Below are positions 2,032 through 19,123 of a stretch of 50,436 bases of DNA, piece after piece; the stretch's first letter is position 1; every line of letters starts with the position of its first letter. The position numbers were made by a program, and so were the translations under genes. Location: the NCBI GenBank assembly GCA_964582565.1, contig CAZOSY010000001.1, positions 1 through 50,436 of the forward strand. Reading direction: 5' to 3'. The stretch comes from an uncultured Bacteroidales bacterium (lineage in GTDB: Bacteria > Bacteroidota > Bacteroidia > Bacteroidales > CAZZDX01). A model generated the notes under the pieces. That model saw nothing but the letters and a program-made list of their open reading frames with translations. It did not search any database and was not told the origin of the DNA.

Positions 2032-2054
2032 TGATTTAAGAAAAATTGTTGATT

Positions 2055-2305
2055 CAAATACTAGTATCTTGACAATTTAATTTCGGAACATAATTGCATG
2101 GAATAGTTTCCAGATATATAATGGTTAAATGGTTTTATGGTTAGATGGTTAAAAATGTTAAAAATATGCAAAATAAATATTTACAGATAAATGATGTATC
2201 TGCTTCTTGGAGAGTTCCAAAAACTGCCAAAAGAAATTAACCATAAAACCATATAGCCATAAAACAATAGAATGTTTCATAATTAAATTGATATAATACT
2301 AGTTT
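2055..2305. repeat. about 250-bp nested palindromic element in the hydG-hydF spacer
   Basis: Imperfect terminal inverted repeats (aaatactagtatcttgacaatttaatttcggaacat / atgtttcataattaaattgatataatactagttt). Inner arms are ggttaaatggttttatggtta / taaccataaaaccatatagcc. Confidence 0.6.
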
Positions 2306-2552
2306 AAAAGTCAAATTAAATGATATAACACAATGGCTGTATCAAAATTATAATGTAAAATCATATTTTTGTGAAATAATAGGCAAACGTTGGTCTTTTT
2401 ATGTCGGTTCTCAGGATATTTTATCATCTGTAAAACGATTAAAAATCTCTGACAATATAGGATTAATAATTGAAGATACTGATTTGGAAGATGATATATA
2501 TAAAAAAATAAAAAAAAATTTCACTATTGTCCGACTAAATTTAAAAATTTAG
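2292..2552 (+). pseudogene. 86-codon open frame with no ATG/GTG start, bracketed by two palindromic elements (possible decapitated gene remnant)
   Basis: Hand translation gives YNTSLKVKLNDITQWLYQNYNVKSYFCEIIGKRWSFYVGSQDILSSVKRLKISDNIGLIIEDTDLEDDIYKKIKKNFTIVRLNLKI*. An in-frame TGA lies at 2289-2291. There is no canonical start codon in frame. Confidence 0.25.
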
Positions 2553-2750
2553 GTAAAATAGTTTCTAAATATTATGAGATTCCTCGCTATCACTCGGAAT
2601 GACAGTGTTATTTAGAGTTCAGGGTGGGGGTAAGGACGGGTAAAACGCGTCCTTACCCCCACCTTCCCAACATAATGAAGTTGTCATTCCGAACGGAGTG
2701 AGGAATCTACTATTATAAATTCTAATTTTATTTTTAGTCAGACACTAATG
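2521..2750. repeat. about 230-bp long imperfect inverted repeat (layered palindrome) with a GC-rich core hairpin
   Basis: Layers from outside in: cactattgtccgactaaa / tttagtcagacactaatg; then gattcctcgc..cggaatgaca / tgtcattccgaacggagtgaggaatc; then the core gtgggggtaaggacg / cgtccttaccccc ac. Confidence 0.75.
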
Positions 2751-2906
2751 AAAAAAATTAAAATTTTAATATTTAAGTCATTTTCTAAAAGTCGTAAAAC
2801 CCAAGTAAAGCCACAAATTTACAGATCTTTTTAAAAAAATTAAATCTGTAATAATCAGAGTAATCTGTAACAACTTTTTCAAATTATTTTAAACAAATTA
2901 ATAACT

Positions 2907-4112
2907 ATGTCAAAAGGAAGAGATGAAAAACCACATATCGGCATTTTTGGTAAACGAAATAATGGTAAAAGTTCGTTTATCAATATTATTGTTAATCAGG
3001 AAATAGCAATTGTTTCAGGTAAGGCAGGAACAACAACAGACCCTGTAAAAAAATCAATTGAAATTTTTGACGTTGGACCTGCTATAATAATAGATACTGC
3101 CGGAATTGATGATTATGGAGAATTAGGAAAAAAACGTGTTGATAAAACTCTGCAAATTGTTAAAATTATTGATTTAGCAATTTTACTGATTACAAATAAT
3201 GACTTTGCTCAATATGAAAAAAAATTGATTAAAGAATTTAATAAATATTCAGTGCCTTATTTTATTGTCCATAACAAATCTGATTTAGAAAATCTTAAAA
3301 AAGAAACTATAAATAAAATAAAAACTTATACCAAATCTGAAATAATAGATTTTAGCACAATCAAACCTGATAATATTGAAGATGTTATTGAACTTATAAA
3401 AAAAACTATACCGGAAACAGCTTATCATACTTCAACTTTAATAGGAAATCTTATTTCAAAAGGTGATATTGTAATGCTTATTACTCCTATTGATAGTGAA
3501 ACACCAGAGGGAAGACTGATATTACCCGAAGTAATGGTTATTAGAGATATACTTGATAATAATTGCACAGCAATAGTATTAAAAGAAAATGAAATTGTTG
3601 ATTTTTTGAAAAAAACAAAACTCAAACCAAAACTCGCAATTACTGATAGCCAGGTTTTTGAAAAATCCAATGCTTTTATCCCTAATGATATTCCATTAAC
3701 AAGTTTTAGTATTGTTTTAGCTCATTATAAAGGAGATTTTCAAAACTATCTTAAAGGCACGCCAAAACTTTCGGAATTAAAAGATGGTGATAGAATTTTG
3801 ATTTTAGAATCCTGCACTCATTATGTAAGTTGTGATGATATTGGAAGAACAAAAATCCCAAACTGGGTTCGTAAATTTTCAGGCAAAAAACTTAATTTTG
3901 ATGTAGTATCCGGATTGAGTGAACTTCCACGAAATATTAATGATTATGCTATGGTAATACAATGTGGAGGTTGCGTTTTAACAAAAAAACAAATTGTCAA
4001 CCGCCTTAAACCTGCTGTTGATGCTGGTGTGCCAGTAACAAATTATGGTATGACAATTTCATATATACATGGTGTTTATGAACGGGCAATATATCCTTTT
4101 GTCAATTGTTAA
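2907..4112 (+). CDS. hydF: [FeFe]-hydrogenase maturation GTPase HydF
   Basis: GTPase motifs G1 GKRNNGKSS, G3 DTAG and G4 NKSD. C-terminal Fe-S motif CTH-x46-QCGGC. Located between hydG and hydE. Confidence 0.88.
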   Translation: MSKGRDEKPHIGIFGKRNNGKSSFINIIVNQEIAIVSGKAGTTTDPVKKSIEIFDVGPAIIIDTAGIDDYGELGKKRVDKTLQIVKIIDLAILLITNNDFAQYEKKLIKEFNKYSVPYFIVHNKSDLENLKKETINKIKTYTKSEIIDFSTIKPDNIEDVIELIKKTIPETAYHTSTLIGNLISKGDIVMLITPIDSETPEGRLILPEVMVIRDILDNNCTAIVLKENEIVDFLKKTKLKPKLAITDSQVFEKSNAFIPNDIPLTSFSIVLAHYKGDFQNYLKGTPKLSELKDGDRILILESCTHYVSCDDIGRTKIPNWVRKFSGKKLNFDVVSGLSELPRNINDYAMVIQCGGCVLTKKQIVNRLKPAVDAGVPVTNYGMTISYIHGVYERAIYPFVNC

Positions 4113-4386
4113 AAAATTTATTACATCTGAATATTCAGGGTAAATGAAGATTTTTTTAGCCAATTATTTTATCCACGATTAAAATTATTGGCTAAAAGTG
4201 TGAATTTAAAATGACTATCAGCCCACGATTTTAGTGGGATTAAAATATAACCCCAAAAATAAATAACCATTTTAATGGTTTATATTCTAATAGTTTTTAT
4301 ATTGCCTTCATTTTTAATAACAAAAAAAAATAATAATGTCACACTAATATGTTGAGATTATGATTTGTTAATTGTAATATTTAAGA

Positions 4387-5478
4387 ATGAAAACCGAAGT
4401 TGCTCAAATTCTATTAAAAGAAAATTTTAGTAAAAAAGATATTATAAATCTTTTATCTACTACTGATACCACAGAAGCAAATAAGTTATATGAAAAAGCA
4501 TATAATATTAAAAAAAAATATGTTGGAAATAAAGTCTATTTACGTGGATTAGTAGAATTTTCAAATTTATGTAAAAAAAATTGTTATTACTGTGGTATAA
4601 GATCAGGGAATAAAAAATTACATAGATATAATATTCCTGATGCTCAAATAAAAAAATCAGTTGCTTATGCCCTGAAAAATAATTTTGGCTCTGTTATTTT
4701 TCAATCAGGCGAAAGAGATGACAGTTTATTTATTGAACAAGTGAATAATATTCTGAAAACTACAAAACGCATTACTAATAATAAAATTGGGATTACTTTA
4801 TCTTGTGGTGAACAAACTAAAAAAACTTATGAAAAATGGTATGATTCCGGTGCCCACAGATACCTTTTACGCATTGAAACATCAAGTAAAGATTTATATT
4901 ATAAAATACATCCTGAAAATAATATACATAATTTTGAAACCCGTTTAAAAGCATTAAAAAATCTCAAAAAAATTGGCTATCAAACAGGCACTGGTGTTAT
5001 GATAGGTTTACCATATCAAACAATTGAAAATTTGGCTGATGATTTGTTATTTTTTAAAAATATTGATATTGATATGGTTGGTATGGGACCATATATTGAA
5101 CATCCTGATACACCTTTATATAATTTAAGGCATTTACTTATGTCAAAAAAAGAACGTTTTAATTTAACATTGCGTATGATTGCAGTATTAAGAATTATGA
5201 TGAAAGATATTAACATAGCTTCTACAACAGCTCTACAATCTATTATGCCTGATAGCAGAAAAAAAGCATTAATATCCGGTGCAAATGTTATTATGCCTGA
5301 TTTAACACCTGTAAAATATATAAAAGATTATTTTTTATATGAAAACAAGCCATGTTTAGATGAAGGTAGTGATGAATATTTGTATTCTCTTGAAAAAAGT
5401 ATCAACCAAATTGGAGAAATAATCGGATATAAAAAATGGGGTGACCCAAAACATTATTTTGAGAGACAAAAAAAATAG
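4387..5478 (+). CDS. hydE: [FeFe]-hydrogenase maturase HydE (radical SAM, BioB-like)
   Basis: CX3CX2C motif (CKKNCYYC). 363 aa with a BioB/HydE-like TIM-barrel pattern. Clustered with hydG and hydF. Confidence 0.8.
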   Translation: MKTEVAQILLKENFSKKDIINLLSTTDTTEANKLYEKAYNIKKKYVGNKVYLRGLVEFSNLCKKNCYYCGIRSGNKKLHRYNIPDAQIKKSVAYALKNNFGSVIFQSGERDDSLFIEQVNNILKTTKRITNNKIGITLSCGEQTKKTYEKWYDSGAHRYLLRIETSSKDLYYKIHPENNIHNFETRLKALKNLKKIGYQTGTGVMIGLPYQTIENLADDLLFFKNIDIDMVGMGPYIEHPDTPLYNLRHLLMSKKERFNLTLRMIAVLRIMMKDINIASTTALQSIMPDSRKKALISGANVIMPDLTPVKYIKDYFLYENKPCLDEGSDEYLYSLEKSINQIGEIIGYKKWGDPKHYFERQKK

Positions 5479-5563: not shown

Positions 5564-6202
5564 ATGAAAAAACTTCCATCTAAAACAATTGAACGTTTAA
5601 CTCAATACAGAAGAATATTAATGCACTGCCTGGAAGGGAATTGTTTATCAAAAGGTATAAAAAATGTTTATTCGTATGAACTTGCATCCTTAATGCATAT
5701 AAACCCTTCTCATGTAAGAAGAGATTTAATGCTATTAGGATTATCAGGAAGTAAAAATAAAGGATATAATATTCAATATCTTACAGATTCAATAGGAAAT
5801 GTTTTAAATATTAATAAACAAAAGATATCTATTATTGGCATTGGTAATTTGGGAAGATTTTTTATCAATTATTTTAACTCATCAAAACAAACAAATTTTT
5901 TTATTGTTGCAGCATTTGATAATAATATTAAAAAAATTAATAAAACTATACTTGGAATACCTTGTTATGATATAAATGAATTATCAAAAATTATAGAAAA
6001 AGAAAATATATCTATTTGCATTTTAACAGTTCCTCCTGTAGCAGCCAAAAAAATTGCTGATATCTTGGTTAATACCAAAATTAAAGGTATATTAAATTAT
6101 ACAACTATTCCTCTTAAAATCCCGTCAAATATTCATCTTGAAGAATATGATATTATTACTTCTTTAGAAAAAACATCTTATTTTTTAAGTAATATGTTGT
6201 AA
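5564..6202 (+). CDS. rex: redox-sensing transcriptional repressor Rex
   Basis: N-terminal winged-helix region (TIERLTQYRRIL), Rossmann GxGxxG (GIGNLGRFF), 212 aa. Sits next to hydrogenase and redox genes. Confidence 0.85.
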   Translation: MKKLPSKTIERLTQYRRILMHCLEGNCLSKGIKNVYSYELASLMHINPSHVRRDLMLLGLSGSKNKGYNIQYLTDSIGNVLNINKQKISIIGIGNLGRFFINYFNSSKQTNFFIVAAFDNNIKKINKTILGIPCYDINELSKIIEKENISICILTVPPVAAKKIADILVNTKIKGILNYTTIPLKIPSNIHLEEYDIITSLEKTSYFLSNML

Positions 6203-7824: not shown

Positions 7825-8051
7825 CGTTTTTGTGTTGTTAATTCTTTAACAAAAAATTATTGTAAGCGTTCACAGAAACCTGTGCTGAAACTTGTGCTGA
7901 ATTCATTTCAGTATCCATGTCATACTGAACTTGTTTCAGGATTGTTTCAGTACGCTGAAATTGGAAAAGAACGAAAAGAGTTTACGAACTAGAGGTTGTT
8001 AGAAATTATTATTAACTTATTTAAACTTAAAATATTAAATATCAATTTGAT

Positions 8052-8573
8052 ATGATTGCTAAGACTAATGAAAGGAATAATAAAGTAAAAAATTTTTGTT
8101 ATTTATTTATTATTCTCATGCTTATATGGCTTGCTCTTACTTTGAGCTTTAAGAAAGAGGAATTAATTGTAGGGTTTATTGTAAGCATTATTCTTTCTTT
8201 CGCATTATATAAAAGTTATAAAAAAATAGGATTTCCAAAATTTAGTATCAAAAGAATTGTTTATCTTTTTATTTATATATTAGTACTTTTTAAAGAAATA
8301 ATTATAGCAAATATTGATGTGGCATATAGAATTATCCATCCAAAAATGCCAATAAAGCCAGGTATTGTAATTATCAAAACTGAATTAAAACAAGATTTGG
8401 CTAAAATGATCCTTGCAAATTCTATTACTTTAACTCCAGGAACATTTACATTAGATATTAATGATGATAGTCTTTTAATTCATTGGATGAATGTAAAGAC
8501 AGATAATACAGATGAAGCAACAAAAATCATAGGTAGAAGATTTGAGAAATATTTAAAAGTGATATTTAAATAA
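8052..8573 (+). CDS. MnhE/MrpE-like subunit (MbxA position)
   Basis: Two N-terminal TM helices followed by the LANSITLTPGT motif typical of MrpE. First gene of the co-directional cluster. Confidence 0.7.
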   Translation: MIAKTNERNNKVKNFCYLFIILMLIWLALTLSFKKEELIVGFIVSIILSFALYKSYKKIGFPKFSIKRIVYLFIYILVLFKEIIIANIDVAYRIIHPKMPIKPGIVIIKTELKQDLAKMILANSITLTPGTFTLDINDDSLLIHWMNVKTDNTDEATKIIGRRFEKYLKVIFK

Positions 8574-8612
8574 ATAATTAATAAGACATTTTAAAAAAGA
8601 TATTGTTTTCTG

Positions 8613-8879
8613 ATGGCAAAAAATTATAAACAATTAGCTGAAAGCATGAAAGCATTGGGACACCCTATACGTCTGCAGATTATAGCAGGTCTTGTTAAAA
8701 ATGAATGTAATGTTACACAGATTCAACAATCTATAGGTGTGCCTCAATCTACCATTTCTCAGCATTTGAGAATACTTAAAAATGCAGGAATAATAGAAGG
8801 AAGAAGAGAAAGAACAAATGTGTGTTATAAAGTGATTAATAATTGGATAAAAGAAGTAATTGAAAAGATAGATAAATAA
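8613..8879 (+). CDS. ArsR/SmtB-family winged-helix transcriptional regulator embedded in the operon
   Basis: LGHPIRLQIIAGL...VTQIQQSIGVPQSTISQHLRILKNAGIIEGRRE is the canonical ArsR HTH pattern. 88 aa. Confidence 0.85.
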   Translation: MAKNYKQLAESMKALGHPIRLQIIAGLVKNECNVTQIQQSIGVPQSTISQHLRILKNAGIIEGRRERTNVCYKVINNWIKEVIEKIDK

Positions 8880-8943
8880 TATTTTTTTAATATAAAATAT
8901 TGTATTATTTGAATATACAAATATTAAGAGATAAAAAAGAACC

Positions 8944-9198
8944 ATGAATACAATGATATTTTTTATAATTATTATAGGCATTAGTATTATTCTTTGTATT
9001 TTACGTATGATAAAAGGTCCTACTGCTGCTGACAGAGCAATAGCAGTAGATACAGTAACAACTATTATTGTTGCTCTATTAGTATTACTTGGTTTTGTTT
9101 TCAAAAGATATATTTATCTGGACGTTTCTTTAGTGTATTCAATAATATCATTTGTTGGTTTAATTGCTATTGCAAGATATTTAGAAAAAGGAATATAA
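8944..9198 (+). CDS. MnhF/MrpF-like subunit (MbxB position)
   Basis: 84 aa, 3 TM helices, GPTAADRAIAVDT motif. Confidence 0.75.
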   Translation: MNTMIFFIIIIGISIILCILRMIKGPTAADRAIAVDTVTTIIVALLVLLGFVFKRYIYLDVSLVYSIISFVGLIAIARYLEKGI

Positions 9199-9201
9199 TT
9201 T

Positions 9202-9567
9202 ATGAATATAAATATTGAATTAATTGGAATTATAGTTACAGGAATTGGAATTTTATTCCTTTTTTTGGGTGGCCTTGGAATTTATAGAATGCCTGATGTA
9301 TATAATAGAGTCCAGGCAGGAACAAAATGTACTACTTTAGGCGCTTTTTTAACTATTATAGGTGTAGGGATAATGCAGCCTGAATGGTTCTGGAAAACAC
9401 TCATCATAGCTTTATTTATACTTCTTTCTAATCCTATTTCAAGCCATGCTTTAGGAAGAGCTTCACTTAAAAGTGGTATTTCTTTGTGGCACAAAAGTGT
9501 TGTAAATAAAACTAAAGAATTTAAAGAATCTGAAAAAACTGAAAAGTTAAAAAAATCTAAAGAATAA
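9202..9567 (+). CDS. MnhG/MrpG-like subunit (MbxC position)
   Basis: LGGLGIYRMPDVYNRVQAGTKCTTLG motif, 3 TM helices, Lys/Glu-rich tail. Confidence 0.8.
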   Translation: MNINIELIGIIVTGIGILFLFLGGLGIYRMPDVYNRVQAGTKCTTLGAFLTIIGVGIMQPEWFWKTLIIALFILLSNPISSHALGRASLKSGISLWHKSVVNKTKEFKESEKTEKLKKSKE

Positions 9568-9569
9568 AT

Positions 9570-9809
9570 ATGATTATAATAGTTTCTATATTAATTTTTT
9601 TAATGCTTGTATCAGCAATTGCAGCAGTGATTTTTAAAGATTTATTGAGTGCAGTTATTGCTTCATGTGTTGTTAGTTTGATAGCAGCTGTTCTTTTTTA
9701 TTTCTTGCAGGCACCGGATGTAGCTATGGCAGAAGCTGCTATTGGAGCCGCATTGATAACTGCTATTTTCGTTATTGCTCTTAGAAGAACAAAAAGGTTT
9801 GAAGAATGA
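9570..9809 (+). CDS. small membrane subunit, MbhD/MbxD-like (DUF4040-type)
   Basis: 79 aa, 3 TM helices, QAPDVAMAEAAIGAAL motif. The stop overlaps the next start (ATGA). Confidence 0.65.
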   Translation: MIIIVSILIFLMLVSAIAAVIFKDLLSAVIASCVVSLIAAVLFYFLQAPDVAMAEAAIGAALITAIFVIALRRTKRFEE

Positions 9810-10492
9810 GAAAAATAATTAGTGCCATATTATTAATTGTTATTGCTGGAGGAATTACATTATCCATTATGGAAATTCCTTTTGGTGTAAACAAAGCAAA
9901 GGTAGGTGAGTATTATATAAATAAAGGAAGAGAAGAAACAGGGGCAACAAATATTGTTACTTCAGTAGTGTTGGATTACCGTGGCTTTGATACTCTTGGT
10001 GAAATAACTATACTTTTTTTAGCAGCTCTAAGCGTAGCAGCAATTCTAAGCTTAAGCAGAAAAAGAAATGATAAAAAAGAAAAAATAGAACCGGCAAGCT
10101 TAATATTATATACCGGATGTAGATTTTTATTCCCAATACTTCTTCTTGTGGGTTCATATATTTTTATTCATGGGCATCTTACTCCGGGAGGAGGTTTTCA
10201 GGGAGGAGCAATTATTGCCTCTGCATACCTTCTAATATATTTATCCTGCCCAGGAAAAAGAATAAATGAAAAATATAGTAAGCTAGTAGAATCATTGTCA
10301 GGATTAATTTTTATAGCATTGGGATTGATAGGGCTGGTAATAGGCGGAGAATTTCTTTTTAATTTTTTACCAAAAGGAACTCTTGGTACATTATTTAGTG
10401 CCGGCATTATCCCAATAATTTATATTGCTATTGGATTAAAAGTTGGCTCAGAATTAACCGGTATTATTGATAACTTAATAGAAGAAAGCTAA
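9806..10492 (+). CDS. MnhB/MrpB-domain subunit (MbxF position)
   Basis: TGATNIVTSVVLDYRGFDTLGE motif typical of MnhB. Polytopic. TAATG overlap with the next gene. Confidence 0.8.
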   Translation: MRKIISAILLIVIAGGITLSIMEIPFGVNKAKVGEYYINKGREETGATNIVTSVVLDYRGFDTLGEITILFLAALSVAAILSLSRKRNDKKEKIEPASLILYTGCRFLFPILLLVGSYIFIHGHLTPGGGFQGGAIIASAYLLIYLSCPGKRINEKYSKLVESLSGLIFIALGLIGLVIGGEFLFNFLPKGTLGTLFSAGIIPIIYIAIGLKVGSELTGIIDNLIEES

Positions 10493-10851
10493 TGAATTTT
10501 TTAAATGACTACATTTATTACATAGGAGCTTTTAGTCTGGTTTTTATAGGACTATATGTTTTGTTGGTTAAAAAAAATCTTATTAAGGTTATTATTGGTT
10601 TAAATATTCTTGATACAGGAGTATATTTATTTCTTGTAGCTATTGGTTATATTAATAATGGTACTGCTCCGATATTTTCAAAACCTGGATTAAACCCGAA
10701 AAATATGGTAGATCCCGTACCACAAGCATTAGTACTAACATCTATTGTGATAGGAGTGGCTATCTTATCATTAGCTCTTACATTAGCTATAAGATTATAT
10801 AAACATTATGGAACTCTTAATTTACGCAAAATAAAAGAACAAAGATGGTAA
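10492..10851 (+). CDS. MnhC/NuoK-like subunit (MbxG position)
   Basis: 119 aa, 3 TM helices. Its position between the MnhB-like and MnhD-like genes fits this assignment. Confidence 0.75.
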   Translation: MNFLNDYIYYIGAFSLVFIGLYVLLVKKNLIKVIIGLNILDTGVYLFLVAIGYINNGTAPIFSKPGLNPKNMVDPVPQALVLTSIVIGVAILSLALTLAIRLYKHYGTLNLRKIKEQRW

Positions 10852-12326
10852 ACCTAATATTAAATCCAGTACTTTTAATTGTTGTGCCTTTAGGTCTTGC
10901 CTTTTCTATTCCTTTGTTCGGACTTATTTCGAAAAAGATAGAAAAGTTTATCCCAACTGCAGCTCTTCTCTTTAATCTTATTGTTTCTGTAATACTCATT
11001 CCAAAAGTATTAATAAAACCTATAAATGTTTCTTTAGGTGGATTTTTGCCTCCCTTCTGTATTAATTTGGTAGCAGGACCTGTTGCAATTATATTTGTCG
11101 CACTTATTGCTTTAGTTGGTCTCTTGGTTTCAATTTATGCATGGGATTATATTAAAGAAGGTGCTAAAGAAAAATATCATATCATTTATCTTTTGCTTTT
11201 GATAGGAGCGACAGGTGTTGTTCTTACCGGAGATATATTTAATCTTTTTGTTTTTTTTGAGATTCTTTGTATTTCTTCTTATTCTCTTGTAGCTTATTAT
11301 AGCGATAAAGCCGGTACAGAATCTGCAATAAAATATCTTATACAAGGGTCTGTTGGTTCCGCTTTTATACTTATAGGTATTGGATTGCTTTATGGTCAGT
11401 TCGGAACACTTAATATGGCAGATATCGCAAATCAAATTCATTCTATTCATTCAATTTCTATCTTCCTACCTCTAGTTCTATTGATTACAGGATTTGGTAT
11501 AGAAGCAGCTATTTTCCCTTTAAACGCCTGGCTGCCTGATGCACATTCGTCTGCACCTTCATCAATAAGCGCTGTACTTTCAGGTATAGCTATTGAAGTC
11601 GGACTTTATGCTGTTGTCAGGATTGTATTTACCATTTTTGGCGCTTCAAGTTTATTAATGTTCTTTTTATACTTAGGCGTTTTAACATTATTAATAGGTG
11701 AAATATGTGCTTTCAGTCAGGATAATATTAAAAGAATGCTTGCATATTCCAGTATAGGACAAATTGGACTTATAGTGTTTGCCTTGTCAATTAATACGAC
11801 TTATGGAGTAGCAGGAGGTCTTTTTCAGTTGGTAAATCATACCCTGTCTAAAGCATTATTGTTTTTAGCTGTAGGTTATATGATTTACCGTAGTGGCTCT
11901 ATGAATATATCTTCTTTTGAAGGAATGGGTAAAAAAATGCCATATACTTCATTTGCTTTTACAATTGGAGCATTTTCACTTGTAGGATTACCGCCATTTA
12001 TTGGATTCCCAAGTAAATTTATGATTGTCAAGGCAGCTTTGTTTAAACACGAAATATTATTTACTGTGCTTATTGCACTTGTGCTTTTTGCTACAATAAT
12101 TGAAGGTGCTTATTTTTTCCGTGTAATACAAGTGATTTACTTTAAAGGGAAAAAGGATGACCTGAAGCGAGAAAGAGCACCTATTAGTGCATTAATACCT
12201 TTGTTTATTTTTGTTGGTTTGATAGTGTTTATAGGAGTTTATCCAAAAATTATGACAGACATATTAAACTCAGCAGCTTCAGAACTTTTAAATAGATTAG
12301 ATTATATAAAAAGTGTAATACAATGA
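10845..12326 (+). CDS. antiporter-like subunit, MnhD/NuoN family (MbxH position)
   Basis: Proton-conducting transporter motif FPLNAWLPDAHSSAPSSISAVLSG. About 14 TM helices. Confidence 0.85.
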   Translation: MVNLILNPVLLIVVPLGLAFSIPLFGLISKKIEKFIPTAALLFNLIVSVILIPKVLIKPINVSLGGFLPPFCINLVAGPVAIIFVALIALVGLLVSIYAWDYIKEGAKEKYHIIYLLLLIGATGVVLTGDIFNLFVFFEILCISSYSLVAYYSDKAGTESAIKYLIQGSVGSAFILIGIGLLYGQFGTLNMADIANQIHSIHSISIFLPLVLLITGFGIEAAIFPLNAWLPDAHSSAPSSISAVLSGIAIEVGLYAVVRIVFTIFGASSLLMFFLYLGVLTLLIGEICAFSQDNIKRMLAYSSIGQIGLIVFALSINTTYGVAGGLFQLVNHTLSKALLFLAVGYMIYRSGSMNISSFEGMGKKMPYTSFAFTIGAFSLVGLPPFIGFPSKFMIVKAALFKHEILFTVLIALVLFATIIEGAYFFRVIQVIYFKGKKDDLKRERAPISALIPLFIFVGLIVFIGVYPKIMTDILNSAASELLNRLDYIKSVIQ

Positions 12327-14179
12327 TTTTAGAAACTTTACTTATAATTGCTTTTGGGGGTGCATTAATAACGTATCTTTTAGGAAAAATATCTAAAAAA
12401 ACTAGAAATATTTCTGCTGTAGTTGTTTTATTGGCTTTAGTAGTTATTATTACTTTTCTTTATAATATTTCTTCCAAAGAAATTTTTTATATAGGATTTT
12501 TAAAAAATCTTTCACTCGTTTTAAGAATAAATACATTTTCATGGCTTTTTGCTATAACTATATCAGTTGTGAGTGCACTTTCAATTATTTTTTCTCTAAG
12601 CTATATAAAAGGTAAAGAAAGAACAAATTTCTATTATTTGATGATGATGCTTGTAGATGCAAGTATGATTGGTATTGTGCTTGCCGGTGATTTTGTTACT
12701 TTTTATATCTTCTGGGAGATAATGTCGTGGAGTGCATTTCTTTTGATAAGTTATAATAGAGGTGCTGCCCTCGCTGCAGGGATGAAATATATCATTATGT
12801 CTGTTATCGGTTCTATGGCTATGCTTATTGGAATATTATCCCTTTATGCAAATTATGGAACATTGAATATATCAGAACTTTCTGCTTTTATGACCTCTGC
12901 TTCTTCCGTATATATTTTGTTTATTTTGATAACTTTTGGAATTGGATTTGGAGTTAAGAGTGCAATAATACCTTTACATGCTTGGCTTCCGGATGCTCAT
13001 TCACAAGCACCTTCTCCATTTTCTGCAGTACTTTCGGGAATATTGATAAAAATGGGAATATATGGCTTTATCCTTATTTTTTATGTTATAGTCGGTTTAA
13101 AAAATTTCCTTGTCTTAGGTAGTAATTGGTCCAGCTTTCATTATATTCTCTGTTGGGTAGGTGTTATTACAATAGTAATTCCCAGTTTTATTGCTATACT
13201 ACAAGATGATGCAAAAAGACTTTTAGCTTGGTCCAGCATAGGACAGATTGGTTATATAATACTTGGTATCTCCTTTGGAACAAGTTTAGGTTTTGCTGGA
13301 GGCACATTCCATATCATCAATCATGCAATTTTTAAGGCACTCCTATTTTTAGCTGTTGGTGCAGTAGAATATAGAACAGGAACAAGAGATTTGAATTCAT
13401 TGGGAGGACTAATAAAAAAAATGCCTATAACTTTTTTAGTAGTTTTAATCGGTGCTTTTGGGCTTATTGGAGTTCCTTTGACAAATGGTTTTGTTTCAAA
13501 ATGGATGATTTATAAAACCTTGATACTTGAGGGTCATCCTTTCCTGGCCTTTTTTGCATTGTTGGGAACTTGGGCAGCTATACTTTACACTTATAAATTT
13601 ATTCATAATATTTTCTTAGGACAACTTCAGGAAAAACACGAAAATATAAAAAGAGCACCATTTAGCATGCAGCTTCCAATGATTATTCTTGCATTTGCAA
13701 TTATTCTCTTTGGCATACTACCAGGTATTCCACTTAAGATTATCAACACCATTGGAACTTCTTTTGGTTTTGAATCTTTAAATGTAAACATCTGGGGAAT
13801 TGCTTCTGATACGGGAACATTAAATACTGTAAATATTTTTATGGCTATCTTAGTAATAGGCGTAATTTTGTGGTTGATTTTTAAAGCAGCTCGCAAATCA
13901 GTAAAAATAAATCAGTATGATAACTATGCAGCTGGTTTTTCTATACCTAAAGAAAAATATAATTATACAGTTAATTTTTATAATCCTTTATATAGAATAA
14001 TTACACCTTATCTTAAAGATTTTATTGATGATTTTTATATGTGGATTTCACGAGAAATAAAAAAAATGTCTGTTTCGGTAAGACGCATATATTCAGGTGA
14101 TATAGGATATTATATTATGTACATAATGCTATTTTTGGCATTATTAATTTTTGTTCAAATAAAATGGAACTTATGGTAA
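12323..14179 (+). CDS. second antiporter-like subunit, NuoL/MnhA-D family (MbxH' position)
   Basis: IPLHAWLPDAHSQAPSPFSAVLSG motif. 618 aa with a C-terminal extension. ATGA overlap with the previous gene. Confidence 0.85.
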   Translation: MILETLLIIAFGGALITYLLGKISKKTRNISAVVVLLALVVIITFLYNISSKEIFYIGFLKNLSLVLRINTFSWLFAITISVVSALSIIFSLSYIKGKERTNFYYLMMMLVDASMIGIVLAGDFVTFYIFWEIMSWSAFLLISYNRGAALAAGMKYIIMSVIGSMAMLIGILSLYANYGTLNISELSAFMTSASSVYILFILITFGIGFGVKSAIIPLHAWLPDAHSQAPSPFSAVLSGILIKMGIYGFILIFYVIVGLKNFLVLGSNWSSFHYILCWVGVITIVIPSFIAILQDDAKRLLAWSSIGQIGYIILGISFGTSLGFAGGTFHIINHAIFKALLFLAVGAVEYRTGTRDLNSLGGLIKKMPITFLVVLIGAFGLIGVPLTNGFVSKWMIYKTLILEGHPFLAFFALLGTWAAILYTYKFIHNIFLGQLQEKHENIKRAPFSMQLPMIILAFAIILFGILPGIPLKIINTIGTSFGFESLNVNIWGIASDTGTLNTVNIFMAILVIGVILWLIFKAARKSVKINQYDNYAAGFSIPKEKYNYTVNFYNPLYRIITPYLKDFIDDFYMWISREIKKMSVSVRRIYSGDIGYYIMYIMLFLALLIFVQIKWNLW

Positions 14180-15066
14180 TTATGATATTTAAAATAATAT
14201 TGATGATATTTTTAGCATTTATCATTGGAATATTTTTCCTTGGATTAGCAAGAAAAATAATTGCAAGAATTCAATGGAGATATGGACCTCCTATTACTCA
14301 ACCAATTATTGATATAATTAAACTGTTTAATCAAGGAAGTATGAGTCATGGTGTTTTATTCAATTTTGGAATAATTCTTTCTCTAACTGGCTCTATCGTG
14401 TTAACATTGTTCCTTCCTATGGGGAAAATGTGCCCGTTAAGTAGCTCCGGGGGACTTCTTGTAATTATATATATTATGCTTTTAATACCCTTAGGGATGG
14501 CATTGAGTAGTGGTGAGGCAGCTAATCCAAATGCAAGTATTGGTATATCAAGAAAATTTATTTTGGCTCTGGGTTATGAGGTACCATTGTTGCTTATTTT
14601 TCTTGCAGTTATGACCCATTATGATACTATTTCAATAGTTAAAATAGTAAAAATACAATCCAATACAGGATGGTCTTTAACATCCTTACCCTTATTATTG
14701 TCCGGTATTGCTTATATATTAATACTTCCCGCAATATTGGGTGTAAGACCTTTTGATATTGTTAAAGCCCCACAGGAAATTTCATCAGGTCCAATGGTTG
14801 AATATGGAGGCAAATTTTTAGCTCTTGCTACCATACAACATGCTTTTAATGAATTTATTGCGCTCTCTCTTTTTGTAAATTTATTTTTAGGAGGTGCTGG
14901 TAACCCCGGATACTTCTTTTTGAAAATGTTAGTTGTATTTTTTATATACCAACTTGTGAATGCTGTATTTTTACGTTTCAGGATAGAACAGGCATTAAAA
15001 TATTTGTGGAAATGGCCAACACTGCTTGCATTAGCAGGTCTGATAATTGTTGTAATAACAAATTAA
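14164..15066 (+). CDS. NuoH/MbhM-like membrane subunit (MbxM position)
   Basis: RIQWRYGPP and EISSGPMVEYGG motifs of the NuoH/HyfC family. 8 TM helices. The true start may be an internal ATG a few codons downstream. Confidence 0.8.
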   Translation: MELMVIMIFKIILMIFLAFIIGIFFLGLARKIIARIQWRYGPPITQPIIDIIKLFNQGSMSHGVLFNFGIILSLTGSIVLTLFLPMGKMCPLSSSGGLLVIIYIMLLIPLGMALSSGEAANPNASIGISRKFILALGYEVPLLLIFLAVMTHYDTISIVKIVKIQSNTGWSLTSLPLLLSGIAYILILPAILGVRPFDIVKAPQEISSGPMVEYGGKFLALATIQHAFNEFIALSLFVNLFLGGAGNPGYFFLKMLVVFFIYQLVNAVFLRFRIEQALKYLWKWPTLLALAGLIIVVITN

Positions 15067-15074
15067 ATTAATAC

Positions 15075-15632
15075 ATGGATAGAAATAAACTTGGAAAATG
15101 GTTAAAGTCCCCGGCAAAAATGGGGCATAAATATTCGCTACATGTAGTATATTTTTGTACAGGTTGTGGAATTATGGAGGTGCCACCTTCTATCACAACA
15201 CGATGGGATGCAGAGAGATTTGGAATAATACCTGTTGCCAGTCCAAGACAAGCTAATTTATTTTTAATCACAGGATACGTATCTTTAAAAACATTAAAAG
15301 CAATTATACGCACTTATGAACAAATGCCGGAACCAAAATTTACCGTAGCACTTGGTTCTTGTCCTATAAATGGAGGAATGTATTGGGATTCTTATAATAC
15401 TATTAAACATTTAGATAAGTATATTCCTATTGACGGTTGGATTGCAGGATGTATGCCAAGACCTGAAGCTATATTCATTGGTGTAACTCATTTGTGGACT
15501 ATGATTGATAAAGAAATGGCAGATGGTTATAAAAAATACAGGAAAAATTATAAATATTACAGGGAAAATCAGGAACAAATTTATGGTAAACTTGAATGGC
15601 CACCATTATTTTCAAAGGAGGTTAAAGAATGA
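15075..15632 (+). CDS. NuoB/MbhJ-like [4Fe-4S] subunit (MbxJ position)
   Basis: Four-Cys cluster set: FCTGCGIMEV, GSCPINGG and GCMPRPEA. Confidence 0.85.
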   Translation: MDRNKLGKWLKSPAKMGHKYSLHVVYFCTGCGIMEVPPSITTRWDAERFGIIPVASPRQANLFLITGYVSLKTLKAIIRTYEQMPEPKFTVALGSCPINGGMYWDSYNTIKHLDKYIPIDGWIAGCMPRPEAIFIGVTHLWTMIDKEMADGYKKYRKNYKYYRENQEQIYGKLEWPPLFSKEVKE

Positions 15633-16153
15633 ATAAATCACTTAAAGAAAAACTTTTATCATCATTTAGTGATATTCAAATAGATATTACTGAAGATAAC
15701 AGAGTCGTTATTAATACAAAAAAAGATGATGTTATTTCTATTTTAACTTTTTTAAAAAATATAGGCTATAAACACTTAGCTCTTATTTCTTGCATTGACT
15801 GGATAGAAAAAAAAGAATTTGAGTTGGTCTATATTCTTTCTGCATATATGGATAATGATACTGAATATAAAGAGAAAGAAAAAACAAATATCTTAGTAAA
15901 AACAAAAATTTCCAGAGAAAAATCTGAATTTATCACAGTAATAAACGTTTTTACAAATGCTGAACCTTACGAACGTGAGCTGCATGAACTTTTTGGGATA
16001 TATTTTGAAGGGCATCCAAGACTAACACCGCTTTTTTTGGAACTGAAGTACAAAACACCTCCTTTTAGAAAAAATTTTGATATAAGAAAATATGTAACAG
16101 ACGTATTTGATAATATTCCTTTTGTGGAAGATAGAAAAGAAAAAGAAAAATAA
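15629..16153 (+). CDS. NuoC/MbhK-like subunit (MbxK position)
   Basis: ERELHELFGIYFEGHP motif. ATGA overlap with the upstream gene. Confidence 0.8.
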   Translation: MNKSLKEKLLSSFSDIQIDITEDNRVVINTKKDDVISILTFLKNIGYKHLALISCIDWIEKKEFELVYILSAYMDNDTEYKEKEKTNILVKTKISREKSEFITVINVFTNAEPYERELHELFGIYFEGHPRLTPLFLELKYKTPPFRKNFDIRKYVTDVFDNIPFVEDRKEKEK

Positions 16154-17250
16154 TGAGAGAAATAGAACTATATTTTGGTCCACAGCACCTTGGAATGGTT
16201 GGTAACTTTAGCATTACATTAAATGTTGAAGGTGACCGTATCTTAAAAGCTGCTGCTAATCCCGGGTTCCTACATCGCGGATTTGAAAAACTTATGGAAC
16301 AAAGAACATGGATACAAAATTTTCCATTAGTATGCAGGATAAATGTTGTGGAACCTGATCCTATGGAATTAATGTATGCTATGGGTGTTGAGAAATTAGC
16401 TAATATTAAAATTCCTGAAAGAGCAAAGTATATTAGAAGTATTTATCTTGAGCTTGCTAGAATTGCTTCTCATTTGTTTGGTTTATGGGCATATTCCAAT
16501 ATGTTAGGTTTTGATACTGTTGCACAATGGGCAATGTATCACCGCGATCTTGTACTGGACCTTTTTGAAGAACTTACCGGTGGTAGAGTTTACCATATAT
16601 ATATTTGGCCAGGTGGTGTAAGACGCGATTTTCCTGAAGGATTTAAAGATAAAATAGTTAAAACATTACATACTATTGGTGGTTGTGTGCCTGATTATGA
16701 TAATACATTTTTTAACAATCGAACATTTTACAAAAGATCCAAAAATATAGGAATAGTAACACGGAAAGAAGCTGAAGAAATGGGAGGAGTTGGGCAGGTT
16801 ATGAGAGCAACAGGTATGAAATATGATATTAGGAAAATTGAACCTTATGCTGCTTATGATAAAGTGGATTGGGAAATACCTACTAGAAAAGATGGTGATG
16901 CGTTTTCACGCATCTGGATAGTACGTGATGAAATGATTGAAAGCGTTCATATGATATTTAAGCTGCTCGATAAAATGCCCGAAGGAGAGGTTTTTAATAA
17001 AATGCCTAATCCTTTCAAATGGAATATCCCAAAAGGAGAGGCTTATGTAAGATGTGAATCTTCAAGAGGAGAATTAGGTCTTTATATGGTTAGTAATGGC
17101 AAAGATAAACCGTATCGTGTGCATTTTAGAACACCTTCTTATTCGCACGGATTAACAATATTGGAAAAGGCATTAGTAAATGAAAGTGTTGCTGATGTAG
17201 GTAATATAATGATAAGTTTATATGTAACGGCTCCTGAAATAGACAGATAA
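16153..17250 (+). CDS. NuoD/MbxL-like catalytic-type subunit without Ni-Fe cysteine ligands
   Basis: GPQHLG, FLHRGFEKL and CESSRGELGLYM motifs of the NuoD / [NiFe] group-4 large-subunit fold. The RxCGxC box reads CRINVVEP. The C-terminus reads VTAPEIDR and has no Cys. Confidence 0.85.
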   Translation: MREIELYFGPQHLGMVGNFSITLNVEGDRILKAAANPGFLHRGFEKLMEQRTWIQNFPLVCRINVVEPDPMELMYAMGVEKLANIKIPERAKYIRSIYLELARIASHLFGLWAYSNMLGFDTVAQWAMYHRDLVLDLFEELTGGRVYHIYIWPGGVRRDFPEGFKDKIVKTLHTIGGCVPDYDNTFFNNRTFYKRSKNIGIVTRKEAEEMGGVGQVMRATGMKYDIRKIEPYAAYDKVDWEIPTRKDGDAFSRIWIVRDEMIESVHMIFKLLDKMPEGEVFNKMPNPFKWNIPKGEAYVRCESSRGELGLYMVSNGKDKPYRVHFRTPSYSHGLTILEKALVNESVADVGNIMISLYVTAPEIDR

Positions 17251-17266
17251 AATAGAGGATAAAAAA

Positions 17267-19123
17267 ATGATTAAAACAAGTATTTTAACTCCATTTAAGG
17301 CTATAAGGTTTCTTTTTAAAAAACCAAAGACATTAAGATTCCCTTTTGAACAGAAGGATACGGCATTGAGATACAGAGGTTTTCATCTTAATGATTGGGA
17401 TAAGTGTACTGGCTGCGGTAATTGTGCTGATATTTGTCCTAATGAGGCTATTAAAATGGTTGAGATACCAGAAATAACACCTAATCCTAAAGAAGGTATG
17501 AAGAATGAAAGACCTGAAATTGACTATGGTAGATGTTGTTTTTGCGGCTTATGTGTTGATATTTGTCCTCCCGGTTCTCTCCGTCTTTCAAGAGATTATC
17601 TACATATTCATTTTGATACAAAAAGTTTTGTTTTTATTCCAAAAGATGAAAAAACAGACAAAGAAAATTTTCTTGATAAAAAAGATTATTCTATATTTAA
17701 AGCAAGTTTGTCACATAGAAAGAAGGATTACGAGGGATTTTCTTCTGACCTTAAATATTCATTATTTGAACCAGAACGTATAATTATGCCTCAGGTAAAA
17801 CCCGAAGAACGTAAACTCTCCTTTATAGAACAAGTTATAGGTTACAGTAAAGAAGAGGCAAAAATGGAGGCCTCAAGATGTCTGGAATGTAAATTATGTG
17901 AAGAGGCCTGCCCTGCACACCTTAAAATTTCTGATTACATCAAGGCAATTTATGAAGACAAACCAGACGAATCATTGAAAAAGATTTATGAGGACAACCC
18001 AATTCCATCAATCTGTGGAAGAATATGTATGGCTCATTGTGAAGATGCCTGTTCAATCGGGAAAAGAGGCGATTCTCTTGCTATAAGATGGATAAAAAGA
18101 TATGCTGCTGATACTATTCAGGATTTTAAATCCACTTTAGAGCTCAAGCCTGCTAAGTCTAACGGTAAAAAAGTAGCAGTTGTCGGTGCCGGACCAGGTG
18201 GTTTATCAGTATCTTATTTCTTAAGACTAAAGGGCTATGAAGTTACAGTATTTGATTCTTTATCAGGAGGAGGTGGAGCCATAAGGATAGGACCGCCAAT
18301 TTATAGATTACCAATAGAGGCAATAGATAAAGATGTGAATTATATAAGCTCTTTGGGAGTTGAGTTTAAATTTAATACAACCATTGGGAAAGATATTTTA
18401 TTTGAAGATATTTTAAAAAATTATGAAGTAGTTTATCTCGGAATAGGTACTTTTGTGAGTCGGTCGACGAGAGTGAAAAATGCGGAAAAATGTTTGTTGG
18501 CACTAAATTTCTTAAAAGAGAATAAAATAGGTGAAGGAGTTAAAGTGGGTAAAGAAATTATAGTAATAGGTGGAGGTAATGTTGCTATGGATACTGCCAG
18601 AGAAGCACTTCGTCTGCAATATATCCAATATCCTAAAGAAGAAGCTATTACAAAGACAGTATCCCTGGAAGATTGGGATATAATGCCAGCAACAGATGAA
18701 GAAATTAAAGAGGCAAAAGAAGAAGGAATACAATTCAATCCTGCATGGGGACCAAAAGAAGTTGTCCTTGATGAAAAAGGAAATATTAAAGGATTGTTAT
18801 GCAAAAAGGTTAAATCAGTATTTGATGAACAAAAAAGATTTTCTCCTACATTTTTTGAAGAAAAAACAATATTGCTGAAAGGTGATATGATTATTGAAGC
18901 TATCGGTCAAGGATCTGACTTTTCATTCATGCCGGAAGAATTATTTAAGAAACTTGAATTTACACCAAGAAGAAAAGTAAAAGTTGATGATAATGGTATG
19001 ACTTCTATACCAAAAATTTTTGCAGGCGGCGATATTGTAAATATTAATTTAGATGCTGTTACTGCAATTGCTGATGCAAAAGTTGCTTCACAAGGAATAG
19101 ATAATTTTTTGTCTTCTATTTAA
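17267..19123 (+). CDS. fusion protein: NuoI/MbxN-like 2x[4Fe-4S] ferredoxin domain + GltD/SudA/NfnB-like NAD(P)H-dependent FAD oxidoreductase
   Basis: N-terminal part: CTGCGNCADICP and CCFCGLCVDICP. C-terminal part: RCLECKLCEEACP, ICGRICMAHCEDAC, VAVVGAGPGGLS, IIVIGGGNVAMD and FAGGDIV. Confidence 0.85.
   Translation: MIKTSILTPFKAIRFLFKKPKTLRFPFEQKDTALRYRGFHLNDWDKCTGCGNCADICPNEAIKMVEIPEITPNPKEGMKNERPEIDYGRCCFCGLCVDICPPGSLRLSRDYLHIHFDTKSFVFIPKDEKTDKENFLDKKDYSIFKASLSHRKKDYEGFSSDLKYSLFEPERIIMPQVKPEERKLSFIEQVIGYSKEEAKMEASRCLECKLCEEACPAHLKISDYIKAIYEDKPDESLKKIYEDNPIPSICGRICMAHCEDACSIGKRGDSLAIRWIKRYAADTIQDFKSTLELKPAKSNGKKVAVVGAGPGGLSVSYFLRLKGYEVTVFDSLSGGGGAIRIGPPIYRLPIEAIDKDVNYISSLGVEFKFNTTIGKDILFEDILKNYEVVYLGIGTFVSRSTRVKNAEKCLLALNFLKENKIGEGVKVGKEIIVIGGGNVAMDTAREALRLQYIQYPKEEAITKTVSLEDWDIMPATDEEIKEAKEEGIQFNPAWGPKEVVLDEKGNIKGLLCKKVKSVFDEQKRFSPTFFEEKTILLKGDMIIEAIGQGSDFSFMPEELFKKLEFTPRRKVKVDDNGMTSIPKIFAGGDIVNINLDAVTAIADAKVASQGIDNFLSSI

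Follow-up and report, generated by a model that had tools for sequence, protein, structure and literature searches.

A [NiFe] large-subunit homologue without metal ligands in a bacterial Mbx/MBS-type operon: cysteine loss inside the Mbs lineage and a predicted NAD(P)H-fed complex

The first 50,436 nucleotides of contig CAZOSY010000001.1 (assembly GCA_964582565.1, forward strand) of an uncultured Bacteroidales bacterium, here called the window, carry an operon that includes a homologue of the large subunit of [NiFe] hydrogenases, L, in which the cysteines that should hold the metal center cannot be found. What kind of enzyme remains when the subunit at the catalytic position has lost its metal ligands? 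The initial annotation, made from the sequence, held that such an enzyme cannot be a hydrogenase, that its pocket must bind a different acceptor, and that the protein may lie toward the NuoD end of the spectrum. Our comparisons establish, at the level of sequence, that the gene encodes subunit L of a bacterial complex of the Mbx/MBS type, a complex-I-like membrane complex with 13 genes that is predicted to pump ions.

We aligned L with MbhL (6CFW_L), HycE (7Z0S_E), MbsL (6U8Y_L), and Nqo4 (2FUG_4), the reference sequences (Pyrococcus furiosus MbsL and MbhL, Escherichia coli HycE, and Thermus thermophilus Nqo4) having been rebuilt from PDB-search alignments. Because the rebuilt MbsL reproduces the published numbering of its cysteines, C85 and C385, which align with N64 and T359 of L, the register of the alignment could be regarded as checked. 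The four ligand positions are occupied by N64, E67, T359, and E362 (Table 1), and neither of the two CxxC pairs of group 4 membrane-bound [NiFe] hydrogenases (RxCGxC and DPCxxC) is present. The strings from which the loss of all four ligands had been read, C-R-I-N-V-V-E-P and V-T-A-P-E-I-D-R, proved exact. No extension supplies the ligands in a displaced position either; a lone cysteine, C61 (16333-16335), precedes ligand position 1 by three residues, but a NiFe center cannot be held by a single thiol. Since the ligand set is wholly absent, the old metal site of L is, as judged from the alignment, empty, and the enzyme cannot be a [NiFe] hydrogenase, as had been claimed. The open reading frame is intact: its ATG overlaps the stop codon of the NuoC-like gene, and its C-terminus reads ...YVTAPEIDR-TAA, where the ...APEIDR ending is, by comparison, the normal C-terminus of NuoD and MbsL.

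The loss is shared well beyond this contig. In 80 relatives of L taken from genome contigs (78-93% identical; 81 sequences with the query), the ligand columns read N, E, V/T/I, and E without exception (80/80), with N64, V65, and E67 invariant in 81/81 sequences; Cys61 is invariant in all 81 as well. The Cys loss is a fixed trait of this clade, neither chance nor sequencing error. A pseudogene or decaying gene was considered and ruled out by the intact reading frame, by the 136 of 365 L positions that are invariant over the 81 sequences, and by the rank of L as the most conserved subunit.

In the PDB, L ranks MbsL first (6U8Y_L, E = 1.6e-101, ~50% identity over the full length), followed by Nqo4 (5.7e-68), MbhL (3.3e-42), and HycE (6.5e-26), and J, M, and N (residues 1-114, 1.4e-28), like L itself, find their best PDB matches in 6U8Y chains. 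The AlphaFold2 model of L (pLDDT 91.2, pTM 0.92) superimposes with template modeling (TM) scores of 0.93 on 6u8y_L and 0.92-0.93 on complex I 49-kDa chains; loop residues 11-17 of the model (beta1-beta2, including V16) have a pLDDT below 50. A search of 1.84 billion representatives returned the tight cluster of the query, then a sharp gap, with the next full-length relatives at no more than 48% identity. For comparison, we assembled 123 Mbs-like relatives with 41-54% identity to L, and every one of them (123/123) shows the signature of MbsL: ligand positions 1 and 3 are occupied by Cys, and positions 2 and 4 by Asp or Glu. A maximum-likelihood tree (LG+C20) separates true hydrogenases, NuoD-like proteins (100/97), and Mbs-like proteins into three groups. 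The query clade is monophyletic (100/100) and nests among the Mbs-like proteins (99/88); its stem branch is long (0.56 substitutions per site), and its crown branches are very short. As its neighbors there are Cys-keeping Mbs-like groups, the disappearance of the two remaining cysteines is, on the tree, secondary, internal to the Mbs lineage, and independent of the loss that yielded NuoD. The proposed proximity to NuoD was thus not borne out, either by the rank of the matches or by the tree, and the quinone-site residues to which it had pointed do not support it: the counterparts of Nqo4 H38, Y87, D139, F146, and D401 in L are V16, V65, M117, A124, and Y357. By these residues, which include the head-group ligands H38 and Y87 and the His-bonding Asp139, and by its grouping with Mbs-like rather than NuoD-like proteins, L is not a quinone-binding complex I subunit.

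The comparisons trace L from a [NiFe] large subunit through an MbsL-like ancestor with two vestigial cysteines, both of which were then replaced (C to N64 and C to V/T359). The statement in the initial annotation that the archaeal counterpart keeps part of the Cys set was correct, the cysteines in question being C85 and C385 of MbsL (PMC7684303). The closest relatives, P0363 and P0378, are 53.5% identical to L in gapless alignments, share its gene order, and retain the cysteines at positions 1 and 3; their motifs (VCRICVPDP...SLDVCPPEIDR) hold both C61 and the two vestigial cysteines. Twenty-five positions are invariant in the clade and present in fewer than 5% of the 123 relatives; these substitutions include V16, N64, W112, Y114, N116, D121, A124, H130, T327, and Y357, and several of the residues fall, by alignment, in the beta1-beta2 loop and in the Nqo4 134-146 and 401 segments, which line the substrate pocket of complex I. 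A coupling of the Cys loss to the fusion of N with a GltD-like flavoprotein was also considered and rejected, given that P0369-type operons carry the fusion and yet keep both cysteines; the two changes took place separately.

The partner subunit J bears directly on what such a loss means. Its FCTGCG motif (C28 and C31, at 15156-15167) aligns without gaps to C25/C28 of MbsJ, its C96 and C126 correspond to MbsJ C93 and C123, and its loop length and CTGCG sequence are identical to those of MbsJ. The statement that the NuoB-like partner keeps the four Cys of the proximal cluster therefore holds as far as their presence goes (C28, C31, C96, and C126), but the loop is of the MbsJ type, and in the solved MBS structure only three Cys ligate (PMC7684303): the MbsJ loop is three residues shorter than that in MBH, C25 cannot ligate, and one iron is left open (PMC7684303). 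Over 67 related loci, C31 and C126 are each kept in 67/67, C96 in 66/67, and C28 in 65/67, so that the sole cluster cysteine missing more than once is the counterpart of the nonligating MbsJ C25. NuoB binds cluster N2 with two consecutive cysteines (PMC8165549); the C28-T-G-C31 spacing in J is of the hydrogenase/MBS CxxC type, and the tandem is absent.

In MBS, C85 and C385 lie ~12 Å from the proximal cluster, the C85A/C385A and C25A mutants have wild-type dimethyltrisulfide-reducing activity, and catalysis has been assigned to the proximal [4Fe-4S] cluster of MbsJ (PMC7684303). Since MBS mutants without both cysteines are active, the loss of the ligands from L says little by itself about the acceptor or substrate, and the earlier claim that the pocket must bind a different acceptor needs qualifying: the leftover cysteines of MBS are dispensable. 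Because J matches MbsJ gaplessly with the same loop, an MBS-like mechanism would survive the Cys loss in L.

Of the residues described for the membrane anchor, the coupling-loop residues D196, E203, and E211 of MbsM are conserved in M. The N subunit is predicted to hold two [4Fe-4S] clusters in residues 1-114 and two more in the FAD and NAD(P)H domain (residues 170-616), which matches NfnB at 1.7e-75, and N is fused to the GltD-like flavoprotein in 66 of the 67 related loci. At the one locus without N-GltD after L, on an uncultured Pirellulales contig (L042, downstream of position 1663), unrelated genes follow instead, an exception that may represent a rearrangement or misassembly. Mean identity over 55 loci is highest for L (82.7%) and J (82.4%), followed by N (72%), M (68%), H' (63%), and K (59%). 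A caveat is that these loci were chosen by similarity to L, although J was not selected; the pattern suggests that the J/L chamber is under strong constraint and that the J/L pair is still functional.

We tentatively read the whole as an NAD(P)H-fed, ion-pumping MBS-type complex that would reduce a nonquinone acceptor at the J cluster, a reading that we consider plausible while stopping short of calling it probable. The electron donor would be NAD(P)H, acting at the NfnB/GltD-like flavoprotein part of N, and possibly ferredoxin as well; the electrons would pass over the two clusters of N to the J cluster and on to the nonquinone acceptor, which by homology would most probably be sulfane sulfur or polysulfide. 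The site of chemistry would be the proximal [4Fe-4S] cluster of J, with its short loop and one iron without a Cys ligand as in the solved MBS structure, and L, devoid of metal, would wall the chamber that it shares with J and M. The three-loop/MbsM coupling machinery (D196, E203, and E211) together with the Mrp module would then drive Na+/H+ export. We infer the NAD(P)H input from the frequency of the N-GltD fusion, from the NfnB-like domain, and from the rex gene and Rex-like palindrome upstream of the operon.

Several points weigh against this reading. MbsM residues E104 and E193 are not conserved in M, the three-Cys coordination of the J cluster is taken from sequence identity with MbsJ, and the proposed acceptor is assigned by homology with MBS, the bacterial family being known from its sequences. 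As estimated from standard potentials, electron transfer from NAD(P)H to polysulfide would release little free energy for two antiporter-like pumps. The cysteines at ligand positions 1 and 3, kept by all the other Mbs-like proteins (123/123), therefore ought to have a role in vivo, and their loss here, together with the long stem and the 25 clade-specific substitutions, may reflect a change of substrate. On the other side, the 4.4-fold induction of Thermotoga maritima mbxA by S0 (PMC9431562) speaks for a link to sulfur, to the extent that the T. maritima complex belongs to the Cys-free clade.

The host genome provides the context in which the alternatives are to be weighed. It spans 3.07 Mb, is 95% complete, and holds one PF00346 gene, which is L. 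A complete-looking rnfCDGEA cluster is found on contig C117 and a structural [FeFe] hydrogenase on contig C268, and neither MenA above the cut-off nor cytochrome bd was found in this 95%-complete genome. Among five carriers from other phyla, whose completeness is unknown, one has MenA above the cut-off, one just below it, one a weak match, and two none, a pattern that is weak evidence against a quinone role.

The main rival to an acceptor-reducing complex is an Rnf-like, ion-translocating ferredoxin:NAD(P)+ oxidoreductase in which N would dock ferredoxin and the fused flavoprotein would exchange electrons between it and NAD(P)+, with the J cluster and the empty L pocket binding no substrate and serving only as a redox-driven coupling element. 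Such a function has been predicted for the Thermotoga/Mesotoga-type Mbx with a GltD-like subunit (PMC4758237; bioRxiv 10.1101/322537) and accords with the older "Mbx" annotation; a total loss of pocket cysteines would suit a site that no longer handles a substrate, and the association with Rex, as well as the apparent fermentative life of a host that has an [FeFe] hydrogenase and shows no trace of quinones, would fit it too. However, it would duplicate the Rnf cluster already in the host genome, and electrons that ran from ferredoxin over N to FAD would never reach the J/L/M chamber, the place of energy release and coupling in all members of the superfamily studied so far. It would also leave unexplained why J and L are the most conserved subunits with all cluster ligands kept, and the first case for which it was proposed, the Mbx of P. 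furiosus, proved to be a polysulfide reductase (PMC7684303). We regard it as possible but doubtful.

Alternatively, the pocket may have been neofunctionalized, with a new site for a nonsulfur, nonquinone acceptor in a remodeled L/J chamber in which C61, E67, E362, and newly acquired Tyr, His, and Asn residues might take part. The contrast between a stem of 0.56 substitutions per site and very short crown branches, the 25 clade-invariant positions, several of them on complex I pocket segments, the invariance of C61, and the complete conservation of the cysteines at positions 1 and 3 outside the clade would all fit such an origin. We nevertheless consider it unlikely: the gene neighborhoods vary among carriers and suggest no candidate substrate, the placement of the substitutions in the pocket follows alignment positions rather than model coordinates, and the long stem could also mean a single relaxed episode before horizontal spread. 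It is likewise improbable, in our judgment, that the clade represents, instead of a decayed MBS, a second independent "complex-I-like" invention, namely, an NAD(P)H-oxidizing pump with a nonquinone, possibly nonsulfur acceptor whose L/J chamber was remodeled through the 25 clade-fixed substitutions, with Cys61 beside the cluster-facing Arg62 and with Glu67 and Glu362 at the old bridging positions. If this were true, the function would have spread horizontally, at ~80% identity, across contigs labeled as ~20 phyla of anaerobes.

A NuoD-like quinone reductase, in effect a pared-down complex I that would pass electrons to menaquinone from a different NAD(P)H module, was the direction in which the initial annotation leaned. 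Such an enzyme parallels complex I in its NAD(P)H module, FeS chain, B/D/H-like chamber, and antiporter-like pumps, and matches NuoD in the loss of all four cysteines and in an above-cut-off score to NF004739 (410.6 versus 360 bits), but it was already disfavored and appears very improbable given the replacement of the five Nqo4 residues by V, V, M, A, and Y, the CxxC of J in place of the NuoB tandem Cys-Cys (PMC8165549), the nesting of L in the Mbs clade rather than the NuoD clade, and the lack of MenA above the cut-off and of cytochrome bd in the host, with MenA absent or below threshold in four of the five other carriers.

The family is very common in metagenomes from anoxic sediments, with 2375 matches at E ≤ 0.001 and more than 100 clusters at 80% identity or above among the candidates scored. 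The 80 loci are labeled as ~20 phyla, including Bacteroidota, Planctomycetota, Spirochaetota, Fermentibacterota, and Thermodesulfobacteriota, and a match at E ≤ 1e-100 was found in 0 of 300 other sampled genomes of the same class (completeness of at least 90% requested). High identity and patchy occurrence point to horizontal spread. A 4.2-kb contig labeled as a Thermoplasmata archaeon (L013) carries an 85%-identical copy together with the fused N gene, which is either a cross-domain transfer or a binning error. At another locus (L088, 13069-20444), N-GltD is followed by a Fer4_22 protein and then by an NfnA/SudB-like FAD-NAD-[2Fe-2S] protein; further on lie a molybdopterin (formate dehydrogenase-like) gene and a genuine group 4 hydrogenase module, and Hyp maturases are located upstream.

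The operon of the window (8052-19123) runs from the Mrp genes through two antiporter-like genes to NuoH-, NuoB-, NuoC-, and NuoD-like genes and a NuoI-like gene fused to the NfnB/GltD-like flavoprotein, so that the Mrp-type module and the M, J, K, L, and N subunits stand in one operon, as in MBS. The Mrp module comprises MnhE, MrpF, MnhG, MbhD, MbhE/MnhB, NuoK-like, and the antiporter-like H and H'. Between MnhE and MrpF, an 88-amino-acid ArsR/SmtB-family regulator with two cysteines (C32 and C71) is inserted on the forward strand (8613-8879); it matches generic ArsR at 9.8e-23, its similarity to BigR is weak (61.7 bits, well under the cut-off of that model), and no gene occupies this position in the three other clade operons or the P0378-type operon that were examined. 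The coordinates of the features are collected in Table 1.

Table 1. Features of the Mbx/MBS-type operon in the window and counterparts of reference residues in L
Feature	Position (nt)	Strand	Basis or remark
L subunit, MbsL/NuoD-like, former [NiFe] large subunit	16153..17250	+	365 aa; Pfam Complex1_49kDa, 1.2e-71
N-terminal ligand motif region, C61-R62-I-N64-V65-V-E67	16333..16353	+	alignment
C-terminal motif, Y357-V-T359-A-P-E362-I-D-R	17221..17247	+	Asp of DPC motif replaced by Tyr
Ligand position 1, MbhL C68 to L N64	16342-16344		alignment
Ligand position 2, MbhL C71 to L E67	16351-16353		alignment
Ligand position 3, MbhL C374 to L T359	17227-17229		alignment
Ligand position 4, MbhL C377 to L E362	17236-17238		alignment
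V16, tip of beta1-beta2 loop, counterpart of Nqo4 H38 (quinone ligand)	16198..16200	+	alignment
Nqo4 Y87 to L V65			alignment
Nqo4 D139 to L M117			alignment
Nqo4 F146 to L A124			alignment
Nqo4 D401 to L Y357			alignment
J subunit, NuoB/MbsJ-like, proximal [4Fe-4S] cluster carrier	15075..15632	+	6U8Y_J, E 6.3e-66
K subunit, NuoC-like	15629..16153	+	Pfam Complex1_30kDa, 1.3e-28
M subunit, NuoH/MbsM-like membrane anchor	14164..15066	+	6U8Y_M, E 2.5e-62
N subunit (MbsN-like, residues 1-114) fused to NfnB/GltD/SudA-like domain (residues 170-616)	17267..19123	+	
Mrp-type membrane module	8052..14179	+	Pfam matches
Perfect 18-bp palindrome TTGTTAATTCTTTAACAA, candidate Rex operator	7835..7852	n/a	~200 bp upstream of operon

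A rex gene lies two genes upstream of the operon (5564-6202), and genes for the [FeFe]-hydrogenase maturases (hydG, hydF, and hydE, at 502-5478 on the forward strand) immediately precede rex and the Mbx operon. The exact form of the palindrome, TTGT[TG]AA-N4-TT[AC]ACAA, occurs at 4 sites in the 3.07-Mb genome against 0.475 expected; at up to three mismatches, the Rex consensus gave 5 matches in the window against 8.65 expected, without enrichment. The exact form is absent upstream of three other clade operons, one of which has rex directly downstream. Rex control is a local lead, not a trait of the family.

None of the points that give this clade its significance is new in kind, and earlier publications cover Ehr/Mbx complexes without NiFe ligands, the structure of MBS, and Mbx-like operons that include a GltD-type subunit. 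By its sequence, the Cys-free L is an ordinary member of a recognized and widespread family whose function is predicted. In the literature searched, we found no statement that the total loss is derived and clade specific within an otherwise 100% Cys-keeping Mbs lineage, nor any of the invariant displaced cysteine (C61) of the clade. The full set of NiFe ligands disappeared on at least two occasions, one leading to NuoD and the other inside the Mbs lineage. A natural "C85/C385-null" relative of MBS could serve to test an open-coordination [4Fe-4S] cluster as the sole catalytic site, as well as NAD(P)H-driven pumping. There is also a practical consequence: with its match to the NCBIfam model NF004739, "NADH-quinone oxidoreductase subunit D," L may be automatically given that name, which its sequence contradicts, and metabolic reconstructions that take it for complex I or for a hydrogenase would be wrong.

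Among known systems, the MBS of P. furiosus is the best match in both sequence and fold, and shares with the complex described here the same 13-gene set of Mrp and M-J-K-L-N subunits, acidic residues at ligand positions 2 and 4 (E88/D388 in MbsL and E67/E362 here), the identical short CTGCG loop in J, and the three coupling-loop residues of MbsM. The two differ in that MbsL keeps C85/C385, the vestigial pair that is N64/T359 here, and has L82 at the position of C61, whereas MbsN is free and docks ferredoxin in place of the fusion to an NfnB/GltD-like flavoprotein; moreover, the host of MBS is a hyperthermophilic archaeon and that of the present complex, which is known from its genes, a mesophilic bacterium. 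The sister Mbs-like groups (P0378 and P0369 types) are 50-54% identical to L without gaps, and many have the cysteine three residues before position 1 (VCRIC), but in both the cysteines of ligand positions 1 and 3 are retained. Operons of the P0378 type match the present gene order and have a separate N subunit of 157 amino acids, and the P0369 type places M-J-K-L-N first and has a 747-amino-acid N-GltD fusion.

The bacterial Mbx-like operons of Thermotoga, Mesotoga, and some proteobacteria (Degli Esposti 2015, PMC4758237; PMC9431562) likewise combine Mrp and NuoH/B/C/D-like genes with a GltD-like flavoprotein at the NuoI position and are predicted from sequence to pump ions. The locus in the window resembles them, and the Ehr type, in its hydrogenase-related L with an incomplete NiFe set and in the GltD/NfnB-like flavoprotein fused to a NuoI-like subunit in an Mrp operon; the NuoD homologues of Mbx-like complexes are described in the literature as having vestigial cysteines, whereas the query clade has none. 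Ehr complexes are described, as Marreiros et al. 2013 are cited in PMC6349859, as relatives of group 4 hydrogenases without the Ni/Fe-coordinating residues; Ehr is an umbrella term, and the present complex, with its full Mrp module and MBS gene order, is specifically MbsL derived. NuoD/Nqo4 share with L the fold, the loss of the four NiFe cysteines, and the ...DR C-terminus, but L lacks the quinone ligands H38, Y87, and D139, and its partner lacks the tandem-Cys N2 motif. Because NuoD and the query clade fall in separate phylogenetic groups, the two losses are, as far as the tree can tell, convergent.

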